The position numbers and the translations under genes are program-made. From an uncultured Clostridia bacterium (GTDB lineage: Bacteria; Bacillota; Clostridia; Christensenellales; UBA1242), in the NCBI GenBank assembly GCA_937896905.1, contig CALBOE010000006.1, positions 57,336 through 121,335 of the forward strand: 64,000 nucleotides of DNA. The letters are read 5' to 3'. Shown in pieces: positions 12,331 through 36,265 of the stretch (position 1 is the stretch's first letter; each line of letters opens with the position of its first letter). Under the pieces are notes generated by a model, which worked only from the letters and a program-made list of their open reading frames with translations, was not told the DNA's origin and did no database searches.

Positions 12331-15300
12331 TTATTCTTCGTCTAAATCTTCAAACTTAATGTTAAAGTCGGAGTTTGCAAACATTGCAGAATCCTCTTTA
12401 ACTTGCTTTGGAAGAATGTTTCTATACATTGGTGCGCCTGTTCCGGCTGGAATCATTTTACCAATGATAATATTTTCTTTTAATCCTTGAAGTTTATCTA
12501 CTTTACCCTTTAAGGCTGCTTCGGTTAACACGTTGCTAGATTCTTGGAAGGATGCAGCAGATAAGAAACTTTCTGTTGTTAAAGATGCTTTGGTTATACC
12601 TTGCAATTCACGTTTAACAGTTGCAGGAACACCGCCATCTTGAAGCACTTTTAAGTTTGCTTCTTCTGCAACTCGAATATCCACAATGTCTTGTGGAAGA
12701 AGACTTGTGTCGCCCGGATTTTCCACTTTAACTTTTCTTAACATTTGTTTAATGATAATTTCCAAGTGTTTAGCATTAATAGAAACTGCTTGAGATTTAT
12801 ACACTTCTAAAACTTCGTTAAGCAAATATTCTTGAACCGCCTTAACCCCCCTTGTTTTTAGAACGTCTTTTGGATTTAGTGGTCCTTCTGTTAATGCTGT
12901 TCCAGGGGTTACAACATCACCCGCCTTAACTTTAATTGTAGAGCCGAATGGAAGAATGTAGCTTTCTTCGGTTGTGCCTTTAACAACAACTTCAAAGCGT
13001 TTGTCTATTTGATTAATAGAAACTTTACCACCAATTTCTGTCATAACAGCAGCACCTTTAGGGTTACGTGCTTCGAAAATTTCTTCAACCCTTGGAAGAC
13101 CAGTGGTTATGTCGGCAGACGCAGTACCACCGCTGTGGAAAGTACGCAACACCAACTGTGTACCTGGTTCACCAATAGATTGAGCAGCAATAACACCAAC
13201 CGCTTCGCCAATGTGAACAATATCGTTAGTAGACATATCTCTACCATAACACTTAGAACAAACACCGGTTTTTGCCTTACAAGTTAACAAGCTTCTAATG
13301 TTAACTTTTTCAATGCCTGTTGCAATAATTTCTTTTGCAAGTTCATTGGTAATGAACACATCTGTTCCACAAATTTCTTTTTTGGTTTTAGGGTTAACAA
13401 CTGGGCTTGCTGTGAAACGTCCAACAATTCTGTTTTCCAATGTTTCAACAATGGTTCCATTAGATTTAATTGCTGTAACTTCAATACCTTTAATAGATTC
13501 GCCAAGATTTTCAAAGCAATCGTGTTCGGTAATGGTTACGTCTTGCGCAATATCAACCAATCTTCTAGTTAAGTAACCAGAGTCTGCTGTTTTAAGCGCA
13601 GTATCCATAAGTTGTTTACGAGAACCACGTGCAGCAGAATAGTATTCTAATGCAGATAAGCCACGGCGGAAGTTAGATTTAACTGGAACGTCAGAAATGT
13701 CGCCACTTGCTGCCGCCATGTTTCCTAGCATACCGCAAAGTTGTTTTAATGAATCGTCGCCACCACGAGCTTTTGATGTAATAATCATTTTTAAAGGATT
13801 AAATCTATCTAACTCTGCAGAGGTGCATTTCATAATTTTGTTGGTTGCTTGTTCCCAACTATCCATATTCTTACGGCGTTTATCGTCCTGACTTATGAAC
13901 CCTTGTTCATACAAGCTATCGGTTTGACGAACAAGTTTATCTGCTTCTTCAATAATTGCTTCACGTTCGTCTGCTTCTTTAAGGTCGAAAATAGAGAACG
14001 AAACACTTGCCAAAGTTGCATATTTATAACCCATGTTTTTGATGTTATCAATCATTGTAACAGTGGTGTTTGTTCCGTGTTTACGATAGCAAGTTTCAAT
14101 TAAGTTGCCGTAATAACCTTTTTTAACGTCGTCGTTAACTTCAAAAGTTAAAGCGTTTTCACGTTTGGTTCTATCAACAAAGCCCAAATCTTGTGGAATT
14201 ATGCTATTAAAGATTATTCTTCCCAAAGTTGTTTTTGTTCTGCCAACAATTGTTTCGCCTTCAAATTCAACTTCTCTTCTTAAATTGATTAATGCTTGCA
14301 AGCTTAATTCGCCATTTTCGTGTGCTAATTGAGCTTCTTCAACGCTACCAAAGGTCATTCCTTCTCCCTTAGCGCCTTCTCTAACAACGGTTAGATAGTA
14401 GTTACCAATAATCATATCTTGGCTTGGCACCATATTTGGCGCACCATCACTTGGTTTTAGCACGTTGTTAGAAGCTAGAAGCAACATTCTTGCTTCTGTT
14501 CTTGCTTCCACAGAAAGTGGAACGTGCATACTCATTTGGTCACCGTCGAAGTCGGCGTTAAAGCCGCCGCAGGCCAAAGGTGGTAGACGAATTGCCTTGC
14601 CTTCAACTAAAATAGGCTCAAATGCTTGCACAGACAATTTGTGAAGTGTTGGCGCACGGTTAAGTAGAACTGGGTGGCCTTGCACAACTTCACTAAGAAT
14701 ATCGTAAACAATAGGACGTTCCTGATCTATCATTCTGGTTGCTTTTTTAAGGTTGTTGGTTGCATTAAGTTCCAACAATCTTTTAATAATGAATGGGCGG
14801 AACAATTCCAAAGCCATCATTTTTGGCAAACCGCATTGATAAATTTTAAGTTCTGGGCCAACAACAATAACTGAACGGCCAGAATAGTCCACACGTTTAC
14901 CCAACAAGTTTTGACGGAAACGTCCGTGTTTACCCTTTAAACTTGCGGTTAAAGATTTTAAATCTCTTTGACGGCTTCCTTGCACCGCTCTGCCACGTTT
15001 ACCGTTATCGAACAATGCGTCAACCGCTTCTTGTAACATACGTTTTTCGTTTCTAACAATAATTTCTGGAGCACCAAGTTCCATTAACTTTTTCAAACGA
15101 TTATTACGGTTAATAACTCTGCGATACAAATCGTTCAAATCGCTTGCTGCAAATTTTCCGCCATCAATTTGCACCAATGGGCGTAAATCTGGTGGAATAA
15201 CAGGAACAACGTCTAAAATCATCCAACTTGGTTTATTTCCGCTTTTAATGAACGCTTCAATAACTTCCAATTTTTTGGTGGCTTTAAGTTTTCTTTGACC

Positions 15301-15900
15301 TTTAGAGTTGTGCATAATGTTAAAAAGTTCTTCTCTTTCTTTTTCAAGGTCGATATCGTTTAAAAGTTCTTTAACAGCTTCTGCACCCATTCCAGCGCGG
15401 AAACCATTAGGGCCATACTTTTCAACTGCTTCGCGATATTCTCTATCACGAATAACTTGTTTATAAGTAAATTCTGTGTTTTTAGGGTCTAAAACCACAT
15501 AGCTAACATAGTAAAGAACTTCGTCTAAAAGTTTTGGCGACATATCTAATGCAATACCAATTCTGCTTGGCACACCTTTGAAGAACCAAATGTGGCTAAC
15601 TGGGCAAGCAAGTTCAATATGACCCATTCTTTCGCGGCGAACTTTACTACGTGTAACTTCTACGCCACACTTATCACAAACAACGCCTTTATATCTAACT
15701 CTTTTGTACTTTCCGCAATGGCATTCCCAATCCTTTTTAGGCCCAAAAATACGTTCACAAAACAAACCATCTTTTTCTGGTTTTTGTGTGCGGTAATTTA
15801 TGGTTTCGGGTTTGGTAACTTCCCCACGAGACCAACTTCTAATTAGTTCGGGTGAAGCTATTGCAACGCGAATTGAGTCAAAATTGTTTAATTCAAACAT
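12331..15900 (-). CDS. rpoC: DNA-directed RNA polymerase subunit beta'
   Basis: 1189 aa. Catalytic NADFDGDQM motif and a zinc-binding Cys cluster ([20 protein letters not shown]). Confidence 0.98.
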
Positions 15901-16038
15901 AAATTTTTTCTCCTAAATAACTTTGTGTTAATTGTTTTTGTTTTCTAGATATAAATATCTAGGCATTTTGGTATACACAACCCTAACCGCCAGCCACACC
16001 GTTAAGCGTGGCATAGCGGAGAGAATTGATACACATTA

Positions 16039-16242
16039 TTAGTCGTCTAAATCGTCAAACAATTCAGATTGACAGCCACATTTTATTAAATATGGCTGGA
16101 CGAACTGAATTGACAATTTTAAAATTAGTCATCCAAATCGTCGAACAATTCAGATTGACAGCCACATTTTGTTAAATATGGCTGGACGAACTGAATTGAC
16201 AATTTTAAAATTAGTCATCCAAATCGTCGAACAATTCAGATT
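16039..16242 (-). repeat. 86-bp tandem repeat (2.4 copies) duplicating the rpoB 3' end plus a 54-nt hairpin spacer
   Basis: Copy 1 is 16039-16124, copy 2 is 16125-16210, and the partial copy 16211-16242 is the real rpoB terminus. Copies 1 and 2 differ at 4 of 86 positions. Each unit contains caattcag/ctgaattg and cagccatat/atgtggctg helices. Confidence 0.9.
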
Positions 16243-19200
16243 CGTCGAAAGCGGTGCTATTAACATCGTTTTCGTAACTATTTTGAATGTCGTCAAATTC
16301 AAGTGTAACGTCTTCAAGTGCTTGTTTGTTAACTGGTTCAACAACAGAAATTTCTTCACCTTCTTCGCTAACTTCATTAATTGTTAATTCGTGGTTATCT
16401 GCCGTTAAAATCTTAACATCTAAGCACAAACCTTGCATTTCTTTAACCAAAACTTTAAACGATTCTGGCATGCCTGGTTCTGGAATTGGTTCGCCTTTAA
16501 CAATAGCTTCGTAGGTTTTAATTCTGCCTTCAACGTCGTCCGATTTAATAGTTAACATTTCTTGCAATAATCTAGATGCACCATAAGCTTCTAATGCCCA
16601 CACTTCCATTTCACCAAATCTTTGTCCACCAAGTTGGCTACGTCCGCCAAGAGGTTGTTGAGTGATTAATGCGTAGGTTCCAATGCCACGAGCGTGGATT
16701 TTATCGTCAACCATGTGGTCTAGTTTTAACATATACATAACACCAACTGTGGTTTTATTTTCGAATGGCAAGCCAGTTCTTCCATCGTATAATTGCATTT
16801 TACCGTCTTCTGGCAAGTTGTTTTCTTTAAGCAATGCTTTAATGTCTTCTTCTGTTGCGCCATCGAATGCTGGAGTTGCAACTTTCCAATCTAGGTGTTT
16901 TGCCGCCCAACCCAAGTGAACTTCCAACAATTGGCTTAGGTTCATACGAGAAGGAATACCCAATGGGTTTAAGCAAATGTCAACAGTTTCACCGTTTGGC
17001 ATGTATGGCATATCACATTCTGGAAGCACAACCGAAATAACACCTTTGTTACCGTAACGTCCAGCAAGTTTATCTCCCACTTGAAGCACACGTTTTTGTG
17101 CAATATACACTTTAACACACATATTAACGCCTGCATCTAGTTCGTCTTTATTCTTTCTAGAAAGAATTTCAACATTAACAACAACACCTTCTTCGCCGTG
17201 TTTAACTTTTAAACTTGTGTTTTTAACTTCTTTGGTTTTTTCACCAAAAATTGCTTTTAACAATCTTTCTTCTGGGGTTAGGTCGGTTTCGCCTTTTGGA
17301 GTTACCTTACCAACAAGGATATCTCCAACTTTAACTTCTGTTCCAATTCGAATAATTCCGTTTTCGTCTAAGTTCTTTAATGCTTCTTCGCCAACGCCAG
17401 CAATATCTCTTGTTATTTCTTCGTCGCCAAGTTTAGTTGTTCTTGCTTCTATTTTAACTTGTTGAATTGCAATTGATGTGAACACATCGTCTTGCACTAT
17501 TCTTTTGTTAATTAAAATAGCGTCTTCAAAGTTGTAACCTTCCCAGTTCATAAATGCAACTGTTAAGTTCTTGCCAAGTGCAACTTCGCCCTTATCTGTA
17601 GAGCCACCATCTGCAAGCACATCGCCTTTTTTAACCTTTTCGCCTTTCTTTACAATTGGTTTTTGGTTAAAGCTTGCTTTTTCGTTCGTTCTTTCAAACT
17701 TTCTTAATTTGTGGTTAACAATGCTTCCGTCGGCATATTCCATTGTGATATAGTCGGCCGACACATATTTACAAACACCATCTTGGCTTGCAAGCACCAT
17801 GGCGCCTGAATCCACCGCAATTTTGTGTTCTATTCCAGTTCCAACAATTGGACTTTCTGCTCTTATTAATGGAACGGCTTGAGATTGCATGTTTGCACCC
17901 ATCAATGCACGGTTACCTGGTGAGTGTTCAATGAAAGGAATTAAGTTTGTTCCTGGTGCAAGAAGTTGAGTTGGGGTTAATTCCACCAATGTTACCATGC
18001 TTGCATCCACACGAACTGGTTGTCCGTTATGACGGCACTCTAACAAACCTTCTTTAATGGTTTTGTCGTCGTTTAAATCCACAGTTGCTTGCGCAATGTA
18101 GTGCCCACGTTCTTCGTCTGCCATTAAGTAAACAACTTCGTCGGTAACTTTTCCGTTTGCGTCAACTTTTCTAAATGGAGTTTCAATAAATCCATACCTA
18201 TTAATACGTGCGTAAGCAGCAATAGAAGTCATCAAACCAATAGGTTGTCCTTCTGGGGTTTCTGCCAAACAAATTCTGCCATAGTGAGATGGGTTAATAT
18301 CACGCACTTCAACAGTTGCACGTTCTTTTTTAACACCGCCTGGGCCAAAAGATGATAACCTACGTTTATGCCTTAAGCTAGATGCTGGGTTAATTTGGTC
18401 CATAAGCGCACTTAATTGGCTGGTTGCCATAAATTCTTTAAACACCTTGTTAATGTGCCTTGCATTAACAATTTGGCTTGGTGTTATATCGGTTAAATCT
18501 CTGCTTTGAAGAGATTCACGAACTTGTGCTTGAAGTTTTGTCATACCTCTACGGAATTCGTCACGTAAAAGTTCGCCACAAGTTGCAACTCTTCTCATAG
18601 ACAAGTGGTCAATTTCATCAGTTTCGCCAATGCCGTCTATTAAATTTAGGTGATAGCTTACTGTTGCAAGCATATCGTCTAAAGTAACTTGGTAATCTTC
18701 AAGTTTTCTAGCATTTGTGCTTATTGCTGCCTTTAAAGCTTCTTCGTTGCCTTTGTTTTCTTTCATAATTTCTTGCAACAATGGAAGATAAACAAGTTCT
18801 GTTATGCCAAATTCGGCTGGGTTAAGTTTTGCGTATGCTTTAAGGTCTACCCTGGCATTACCAACAACTCTAATAACTTTGTCGTCCACAATAATATCTA
18901 CTGCGTTAACACCAGCATTTTGAATTGCCCATGCGGTTTGTTTATCTATAAATTCGCCCTTAGAAACATAAACCTTTTTGCCAACTTTTACGTCAGCTGC
19001 AGCAATTTGGTCGGTAATTCTGTTTGCAAGCGACAATTTTTTGTTAAGTTTAAAACGGCCAACTTTTTCCATGTTGTAGTGTTGTTGGTTAAAGAAACGG
19101 TCGTTAATATATGCCAATGTGTTTTCTGGGTTAGGAATTTCACCCGGACGAGTTCTACGGCCAAATTCAATTAAAGCATCTTCTTGGGTGATTTGTGCTT

Positions 19201-19882
19201 CCTTATCCAATGTGTTAACAATGAATGGGTGATTTGCAAAAATATCCAACAATTCTTCGTTGGTGTAGCCAAAGCATTTGAAAAGAACACCCAAACTCAT
19301 TTTGAATTTGCGTTCAACAATAACACGCATGCTGTCGCCTGTTACTTGTTCTGTTTGAACCCACATTCCATAGCTTGGTTGGATTGCACCAGTGTAGTCC
19401 ATGCGGCCATACTTGTTAAGTTCGCCACCAAAAATTGCGCCTGGTGCTTTAATTAGTTGATTCAAAACAACCCTTTCAACACCATTGCAAATAAAGCCAC
19501 CGTCTTGGCTCATATATGGAATGTCGCCCATGAATACTTCTTGGTCCATAATTTGCCCGGTTTCTTTAACAAGCAAACGAACTTTCACTTTAAGCGGAAC
19601 TGTGTAGCTTGTTTGTTTGGTTTTGCATTCTGCCCAAGAATATTTTGGGGTTCTGTCGATAGAATAACCCAAAAAAGACAACTCTGCTTTGTTAGAGTAG
19701 TCTATAATAGGGTTATATTCGTTCAAAATTTCGCCAATATCCTCGGTTAAAAACTTTTCGTAGGACTTTTTTGGAACTTCCAAAAGGTCTGGCATTGGAT
19801 AGTTGCCGCCCTTTTTGGCAAAACTATATCTTTCTGCTTTGCCTTGTTTTAGTTTTTTAATGTTGAGCTCATTTGAATTCAT
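16211..19882 (-). CDS. rpoB: DNA-directed RNA polymerase subunit beta
   Basis: 1223 aa with conserved beta-subunit blocks ([37 protein letters not shown]). Confidence 0.98.
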   Translation of the reverse strand: [1223 protein letters not shown]

Positions 19883-35874: not shown

Positions 35875-36056
35875 ATAAAAAATAAGCCATATACTCAAAC
35901 GAACATATGACTTATTAAGGACTAATAAATAGAAATAAGCATATTGCACAAACTAACATATGGCTTATTAAATAGAAATAAGCATATTGCACAAACTAAC
36001 ATATGGCTTATTAAATAGAAATAAGCATATTGCATATACTATGCATATGGCTTATT
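35875..36056. repeat. Array of four tandem ~43-bp hairpin-containing repeats
   Basis: Units at 35927-35969, 35970-36012 (identical) and 36013-36056, plus a degenerate unit at ~35875-35926. Each carries aataagc(c)atat ... atatggcttatt arms. Confidence 0.85.
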
Positions 36057-36265
36057 ATAACTATCACGCAATGGCAAAACACCTAATTAATGCGGGGAAT
36101 TGCATTTCGGCAACAGTTTTTAAACAATATCACCACATTTACCCCGCACTTGTTCTATACTTTGAAAATCATCGCCCCATTCCAATTAGGCAATACAAGT
36201 GGGCAGAATATTTACCACTGCTAACACGACTTAATATTCCAATTAACAATCCAGAAAATGTGCAA

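Follow-up and report, generated by a model that had tools for sequence, protein, structure and literature searches.

The window, i.e., the whole 64,000-nt stretch of DNA analysed here, includes rpoB and rpoC, which encode the beta and beta' subunits of RNA polymerase. Both genes lie on the minus strand and are separated by a gap of 310 nt, the length that had been read from the letters alone in a preliminary description and that is borne out by the NCBIfam gene boundaries. The RpoB protein ends in ...SELFDDLDD-stop. The last 32 nt of rpoB (T) and a spacer of 54 nt (Sp) make up an 86-nt unit, and this unit occupies the gap in 2.4 copies. Tandem Repeats Finder reports it at 16038-16242 with a period of 86, 2.4 copies, 96% matches, and a score of 382. 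It is a single unit whose copies lie head to tail, that is, a tandem repeat. The features of the locus are as follows, with the evidence for each in brackets.

16211-19882, minus strand: rpoB, RNA polymerase beta subunit, 1223 aa (NCBIfam NF001616/TIGR02013, E = 0; ORF listing)
16242-16211, minus strand: T(A), the true rpoB terminus, which opens the first 86-nt unit, aatctgaattgttcgacgatttggatgactaa (sequence, Tandem Repeats Finder)
16210-16157, minus strand: Sp(A), the 54-nt spacer (sequence, pattern match at 16159-16184, folds)
16198-16191, minus strand: invT in Sp(A), caattcag, an inverted copy of part of T (sequence)
16184-16176 and 16167-16159, minus strand: the two arms of the P2 hairpin in Sp(A), with the loop ttaaCaaa (folds)
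16156-16125, minus strand: T(B), a second, untranslated terminus with the same sequence as T(A) (sequence)
16124-16071, minus strand: Sp(B), the second spacer copy (sequence, pattern match)
16112-16105, minus strand: invT in Sp(B) (sequence)
16098-16073, minus strand: P2 in Sp(B), with the loop ttaaTaaa (sequence)
16070-16039, minus strand: T', an old untranslated twin of the terminus, ttt..tta gac (sequence)
15971-16038, minus strand: X, a G+C-rich hairpin of ~27 bp (fold and alignment to Sp)
15944-15962, minus strand: a short A+T hairpin, ctagatat-tta-atatctag, after X and before the rpoC ribosome-binding site (sequence)
15914-15910, minus strand: Shine-Dalgarno sequence of rpoC, aggag, with the ATG at 15900 (sequence)
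12331-15900, minus strand: rpoC, beta' subunit, 1189 aa (NCBIfam TIGR02386, E = 0)

The preliminary description counted two extra 86-bp copies in the gap. There is one extra full unit, and the third 32-nt terminus is also there. T(B) is identical to the true terminus, as had been noted, and Sp(A) differs from Sp(B) by a single C/T, located in the loop of the hairpin. Between T and T' there are three differences (ttc/ttt, ttg/tta, and gat/gac), all of them at synonymous third positions, again in agreement with the first reading. The core of the hairpin is found in only two places within the window, where 0 are expected, and no second copy of the 86-nt unit exists in the rest of the 886-kb genome. 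The A+T hairpin at 15944-15962 appears in the minimum-energy fold of the whole rpoB-rpoC spacer.

Genome-wide, the 86-nt array is one of about five strong tandem repeats with a period of at least 30. At ~35926-36057 of the window (C6:93261-93392 in genome coordinates), a 43-nt unit is repeated three times with 95% identity. Each of these units has a hairpin, ataagcatat..atatggcttat, and the repeat lies between or overlaps short ORFs just upstream of a 1089-aa minus-strand gene. Outside the window, at C6:421963-422239, there is an 80-nt tandem repeat of 3.5 copies with 91% identity, whose consensus resembles part of a tRNA gene plus spacer.

For comparison, 64 species-level genomes of one genus of Clostridia (~0.8-1.1 Mb) were used, including that of the window (G000). 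The RpoB sequences of the relatives are labelled 'Clostridia bacterium' or 'Candidatus Onthoplasma sp.', and NCBI taxonomy places them in Christensenellales. The rpoB-rpoC spacer is mostly 11-63 nt long in the 56 genomes with the junction. In eight genomes (G000, G005, G042, G056, G058, G059, G060, and G061), it contains T, a ~54-nt spacer with invT and P2, and a second copy of the terminus, T'. These carriers and the strains L073 and L075 form one clade with 100% ultrafast bootstrap in a maximum-likelihood tree based on the nucleotides of the rpoB 3' and rpoC 5' parts. The genomes of this clade are ~1 Mb and Christensenellales-like. L072, the sister species of G000 (87% identity), is the only member of the clade without the T-Sp-T' layout. 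Because the carriers form one clade, within which only L072 lacks the layout, a single origin before the species split and a single loss are indicated. The old duplication that had been suggested from the window alone thus proves to be older than the split of ~8 species, between which 21-47% of the 4-fold degenerate sites differ. Spacers that are unrelated among relatives, with no conserved structure, would have spoken against that suggestion; what is found is a layout common to all of these species.

The conservation is confined to the junction. Exact matches to a conserved 17-mer of the spacer occur at the rpoB-rpoC junction only, in 5 of the 64 genomes. The unit is single-copy per genome and is thus not a dispersed repeat of the REP/BIME, BOX, Correia, or MITE kind. 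A mobile or dispersed element is rejected on the lack of a second copy in the 886-kb genome and on the confinement of the 17-mer. An apparent vestige of T' in L074 is taken as a chance resemblance, L074 being outside the clade. No other contig was found by exact RpoB look-up, and a scan of JGI metagenomes with the G000 hairpin gave no match. No Rfam family matched (best scores of 10-24 bits against thresholds of 43-440, E >= 0.2), and full-text literature searches yielded nothing on rpoB-rpoC hairpins or processing in bacteria.

Other features were seen between rpoB and rpoC in the relatives. In 11 of the 64 species, the two genes are separated by a small ORF of 55-79 codons that in most cases has a ribosome-binding site of its own (L039:1805-2044; L040:1660-1887, minus strand; L047:1680-1901, minus strand; L012:1813-2028; also in L019, L023, L031, L044, L049, L053, and L064). 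The lineages having it are scattered and include four of the eight T-Sp-T' species, in which it is ~71-79 codons long, has its own ribosome-binding site, and is located just downstream of T'. It has no other location in these genomes and no Pfam match, and it is absent from G000. Its copies share a loose pattern, ..LT....LL.K......G..V.K.TY..I...L. In a neighbouring group (L050, L051, and L052, representing G049, G047, and G050) and in L072:5240-5305, the rpoB-rpoC spacers have two copies of a small palindromic motif, which in that group reads tggcgrtagcca .. aggcgayagccat.

Elements that integrate into gene ends typically duplicate the 3' end of the gene. T and T' could be read in this way, as att-like repeats or duplicated target sites that a mobile or integrative element, possibly one related to the small ORF cassette of the relatives, left behind on entering the 3' end of rpoB. 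The gene-end duplication is typical of such insertions, and the small ORF follows T' directly in four species of the clade. The distance between the repeats, however, is 54-56 nt, with neither cargo nor recombinase. The small ORF lies outside the repeats and occurs without T' in other lineages, while the unit is found at this locus only. Copy number changes by whole units, in tandem-repeat fashion, and among the 64 genomes there is no Sp flanked by duplications of other gene ends and no excised circle. The footprint of an integrative element is a very improbable explanation.

The number of units differs between close relatives. L073, a Logan assembly from another sample, is 99% identical to the window over 6.7 kb. 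Its spacer is 224 nt long, which is 310 minus exactly one 86-nt unit, and T(B) is absent. Its T reads ttc..ttg gaC, while its T' is the same as that of the window. As a strain with 99% identity has one unit fewer, the extra unit of the window is a recent strain-level duplication made after T gained gat. The second, recent duplication of the preliminary description is thereby supported. A collapse of the repeat could in principle have produced this one-unit contig, but a de Bruijn loop at this repeat is more likely to cause a contig break than a collapse. In a second, G058-like species, L084 has T-Sp-T-Sp-T and L081, L082, and L085 have T-Sp-T, with RpoB identical in all of them. Aligning the spacers of related strains, a check that had been proposed, thus reveals copy-number variation in two species.

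Assembly programs do falter at this place. A scaffold gap (a run of N) lies exactly at the repeat in L083, the G042 contig terminates inside the second spacer copy, and the Logan contig L087 stops 7 nt past the rpoB stop codon. One might then ask if the extra unit of the window comes from a mis-resolved repeat or from a strain mixture. The window, however, is part of a 487-kb contig in an assembly of 10 contigs. A single base separates its two spacers, the gat private to this strain is present in both T copies, and a two-unit array was independently assembled in L084, which is another species. Since, besides the one-base difference between Sp(A) and Sp(B), one-unit and two-unit arrays were assembled independently in each of two species, we consider an artefact hardly credible and take the 86-nt array to be real.

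The preliminary description also proposed a recurrent duplication hotspot, and this is supported. L084 and the G042 contig are further cases of duplication, and another is found outside the T-Sp-T' clade. In G011 (L018:1460-1521), a 23-nt tandem repeat of 2.5 copies (tttagatgatt..tctaaaaga) spans the last rpoB codons and the start of the spacer, and it is independent of T-Sp-T'. The T' copy itself can be replaced. In L075, T' keeps gaC gaG, while in conspecific strains T' is the same as T (gaT gaA), which shows that T' has been overwritten by T in some strains. This would be the outcome if the array expanded and then lost its distal unit.

Such dynamics are those of a slippage-prone minisatellite (VNTR), and the array may be nothing but that, having no function, being homogenised by expansion and contraction, and forming hairpins only incidentally. 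Strain-variable copy number within species is seen in two species, among near-identical strains, and the resetting of T' to T in some strains points the same way. The module has been lost in L072; T' is visibly decaying in G005, G059, and L086; and G011 has an unrelated short repeat of this terminus. Homogenisation alone could keep T' like T. Against this, the insert is one of 85 nt between perfect direct repeats of 29 nt, which should vanish fast in streamlined genomes of ~0.9 Mb. Instead, it persists in species with 21-47% divergence at 4-fold sites. Two further lines of evidence, the rate of change and the pattern of change, bear on this alternative.

The three differences between T and T' give a relative chronology. 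T' keeps the codon states of the relatives and T carries the derived changes, as expected from the synonymous drift of the coding copy that was postulated from the window. The derived synonymous changes in T differ in age: ttc is common to G000 and L072, ttg is common to G000 and L073, and gat is private to this strain, which makes three ages in all. As ttc is common to both species, it would be older than the split of G000 and L072 unless it has arisen twice; the polarity of all of these changes presumes no homoplasy at fast-changing third positions. The synonymous-only signature follows if T' is an earlier snapshot of T, with T changing only synonymously and T' changing little.

How little T' changes is seen between species. 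The T' copies of G000 and G060 differ at 3 of 29 positions and their coding T copies at 6 of 30, while 4-fold sites differ by 0.47. From the Jukes-Cantor 4-fold distance of 0.54 on the G000 lineage to L072, T' should have gained ~7.8 neutral changes after the L072 split. None is evident (P(<=1) = 0.004), and T' is therefore under constraint and more than a passively decaying fossil. The T' of G000 has older codon states, so it has not been recently re-copied from T, and the missing ~8 changes are not what a merely homogenised repeat would give. The spacer core has a divergence of 0.05-0.13 against 0.21-0.36 at 4-fold sites in four species (G060, G058, G005, and G042), i.e., it is 3-6 times less diverged, which also speaks against a minisatellite without function. 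The spacer core of G000 against those of other species gives 0.38 compared to a neutral 0.36-0.47 and is no lower. Note that the arguments from rates, as well as those from covariation below, draw on ~8 lineages and short sequences.

The spacer and the terminus copies can fold together. invT (caattcag) is the reverse complement of ctgaattg in T, and P2 is a 9-bp stem, cagccatat/atgtggctg. The 8+9-bp helix of the preliminary description (caattcag..cagccatat / atgtggctg..ctgaattg) is present, and its outer 3' arm lies inside the next terminus copy, as described there. RNAalifold recovers both P1 (invT:T') and P2. The fold in which invT is paired with T' around P2 is called H2 here. In G000, it is a predicted, nearly continuous hairpin of ~25-28 bp, consisting of a 10-bp helix of T' with Sp5' (aaattgtcaa:ttgacgattt), a 7-bp stem at caattcag/ctgaattg, and P2 (10+7+11 bp; in silico folding energy of -28.1 kcal/mol, z -6.1). 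The ttt of T' suits the 10-bp Sp5' helix better than the ttc of T. The folding energy of H2 is -25.0 in G060 and -21.8 in G058. In G056 and G059, the caattcag/ctgaattg helix (P1) is gone and is replaced by other pairings.

P2 has changed on both sides in four of its nine pairs (e.g., CC:GG, GG:CC, and AG:CT), with 96.7% of cells paired. Its covariation score is 0.278 against 0.098 after shuffling (0 of 500 shuffles reach it), and controls with slid partners give at most 0.08. The alignment of 10 sequences from ~8 lineages was guided by a covariance model and so is fitted to the model, for which reason this covariation is taken as good but not overwhelming evidence of a selected pairing. The best match of the covariance model in the window is at 16039-16154, with 114 bits. 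Since P2 has no coding template, homogenisation cannot yield its compensatory changes. Together with the slow spacer core, the unchanged T' of G000, and the long retention of the insert, this makes a minisatellite devoid of function rather unlikely.

The hairpin X, between T' and the A+T hairpin, is predicted at -35.5 kcal/mol with z -6.9 and an ensemble frequency of 0.6. Of 2000 shuffles, 16 align locally with Sp as well as X does or better, and X is probably a third spacer copy that is much older and has diverged. L073 has one SNP in X. In G058, G056, and G060, no significant homology to Sp was found in the region after T'. At the position equivalent to X, G056/G059 and G058 have long hairpins that look unrelated.

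The invT motif has a second possible partner. Pairing with the translated T upstream gives the fold H1, with the stop codon in the loop, at -8 to -15 kcal/mol across species. With two partners, the element might work as a ribosome-sensing RNA switch, in which invT pairs either with translated T (H1) or with the untranslated decoy T' (H2). The fold past rpoB would then report a ribosome on the last codons and couple beta translation to downstream expression or processing, such that processing or stability of the rpoB-rpoC junction would depend on ribosomes finishing beta. Selection would keep the decoy T' matched to T, and the number of units would set how strong the effect is in a given strain. 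H1 and H2 are each predicted in all carrier species. In all of them, invT starts 10-12 nt past the stop codon although the intervening stretch differs at 33-92% of positions; this distance presumably puts invT at the edge of a terminating ribosome, judging from footprint size. T' is nearly identical to T, and Sp5' pairs better with the T' of its own species than with those of other species (66 of 5040 permutations, p = 0.013). The corresponding fit of Sp5' to own-species T, however, is not significant (1058 of 5040 permutations, p = 0.21). A second-tier T:Sp5' helix seen by eye (TAGA:TCTA, TGGA:TCCA, and CTTGA:TCAAG) is set aside on this permutation result for T. H1 in G000 is weak at -10.6 kcal/mol with z -1.8, neither a terminator nor a sequestered ribosome-binding site was found that could serve as output, and the pairing register is altered in G056 and G059. 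We regard a switch of this kind as unlikely.

Several other functions were considered for the array. The preliminary description mentioned partial termination between the two genes, which is unlikely. No intrinsic terminator is found on the minus strand in 15700-16400, where the hairpins are followed by ttcgac.. or taataatg; an intrinsic terminator or attenuator is rejected as no G+C-rich hairpin with a T-run exists on the transcribed strand. A gene for Rho was detected in none of the eight carrier genomes (best TIGR00767 score of 21 bits against a cut-off of 509), so these genomes lack the factor on which Rho-dependent polarity relies. Translation of T' is rejected since unit lengths of 81-87 nt give no constant frame and there is no conserved start codon or Shine-Dalgarno sequence. 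Reading on through Sp in the T' frame meets no stop codon in G000, G060, or L075, and meets a TGA in G058. A promoter in T/T' is rejected as well. TTGACG is located in the coding tail, only weak 9/12 matches occur here, and no -10 is conserved in the relatives.

The reading that we favour, and consider somewhat the better bet on folds, covariation, and rates, is that the array forms a double-stranded RNA element under selection in the rpoB-rpoC mRNA, with T' as its 3' arm. Most likely it is a site for RNase III, a protective 3' hairpin, or both. All eight carrier genomes have a gene for RNase III (TIGR02191, 161-170 bits with a cut-off of 166), in G000 at C2:51905-52504. An RNase III site would be expected to have ~20 bp or more of double-stranded RNA, a length that the H2 hairpin exceeds in silico. 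In the ancestor of the clade, a segment comprising the last ~30 nt of rpoB (T), invT, and the 9-bp P2 was duplicated in tandem, and T' has been kept since then. Unequal recombination or slippage between T copies would have shifted the copy number from time to time. On the mRNA, H2 would be a processing or stability element, and in G000 two H2 hairpins would precede the older hairpin X. Ribosomes finishing rpoB may push invT from T (H1) onto T' (H2). As an RNase III site and/or a barrier to 3' exonucleases, its most likely role, H2 would set apart or stabilise the rpoB portion and the portion downstream of it, which is rpoC or, in relatives, the small ORF and rpoC. We infer that the array could modulate rpoC translation or RNA processing, as the preliminary description proposed. 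Note that the element is dispensable, L072 being without it and P1 being lost in G056/G059, and that differential processing has no obvious need because beta and beta' are required 1:1.

If the array is such a processing or stability signal, it would imply a lineage-specific handling of rpoB-rpoC in very small, Rho-less genomes of gut Clostridia. The array illustrates the retention, apparently by selection, of a tandem duplication of last codons as the arm of a structured RNA in a core transcription operon. T' is an unusually clean example of a non-coding twin in which earlier synonymous states of an essential gene are preserved. In practice, the array is a marker that varies between strains, and short-read assemblies of these organisms break there.

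The array shares features with several known systems. Like the minisatellites used as MLVA loci, it has head-to-tail units, one or two full units in near-identical strains, and homogenised copies. Unlike these, its unit starts in the last codons of an essential gene, its layout is kept in ~8 species, and it has a covarying hairpin and an untranslated twin of a coding end that changes more slowly than neutral. RNase III hairpins in polycistronic mRNAs, among which we count the rplL-rpoB site of E. coli rplJL-rpoBC and R1.1 of phage T7, also have a stem of ~25-28 bp with a small internal loop and are found between cistrons of an RNA-polymerase operon. The enzyme is encoded in all carrier genomes, and the hairpin is a predicted one here. 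The present array lies between rpoB and rpoC and not upstream of rpoB as the rplL-rpoB site does. There is no sequence relation to these hairpins, and one arm of the array has been copied from coding sequence.

Intercistronic stem-loops and REP elements, e.g., in malE-malF, stabilise the upstream mRNA. As in malE-malF, a stable hairpin without a T-run is located just past a stop codon inside an operon. While REP elements are dispersed in many copies, the unit described here is single-copy at one locus. Alternative hairpins that depend on translation are known from attenuators such as the trp leader and ermC. Similarly, invT has two possible partners, one of which would be covered by a translating ribosome. 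The translated partner, however, is the end of a 1223-codon gene and not a leader peptide, the array has neither a terminator nor a masked ribosome-binding site, and support for T:invT pairing is weak. All of the ingredients (VNTRs, intercistronic hairpins, and concerted evolution) are known, and the array is no new class of system. What is unusual is their combination: a unit that begins in the last codons of an essential gene, a constrained untranslated twin as helix arm, a covarying inner stem, and a copy number that varies between strains in at least two species.
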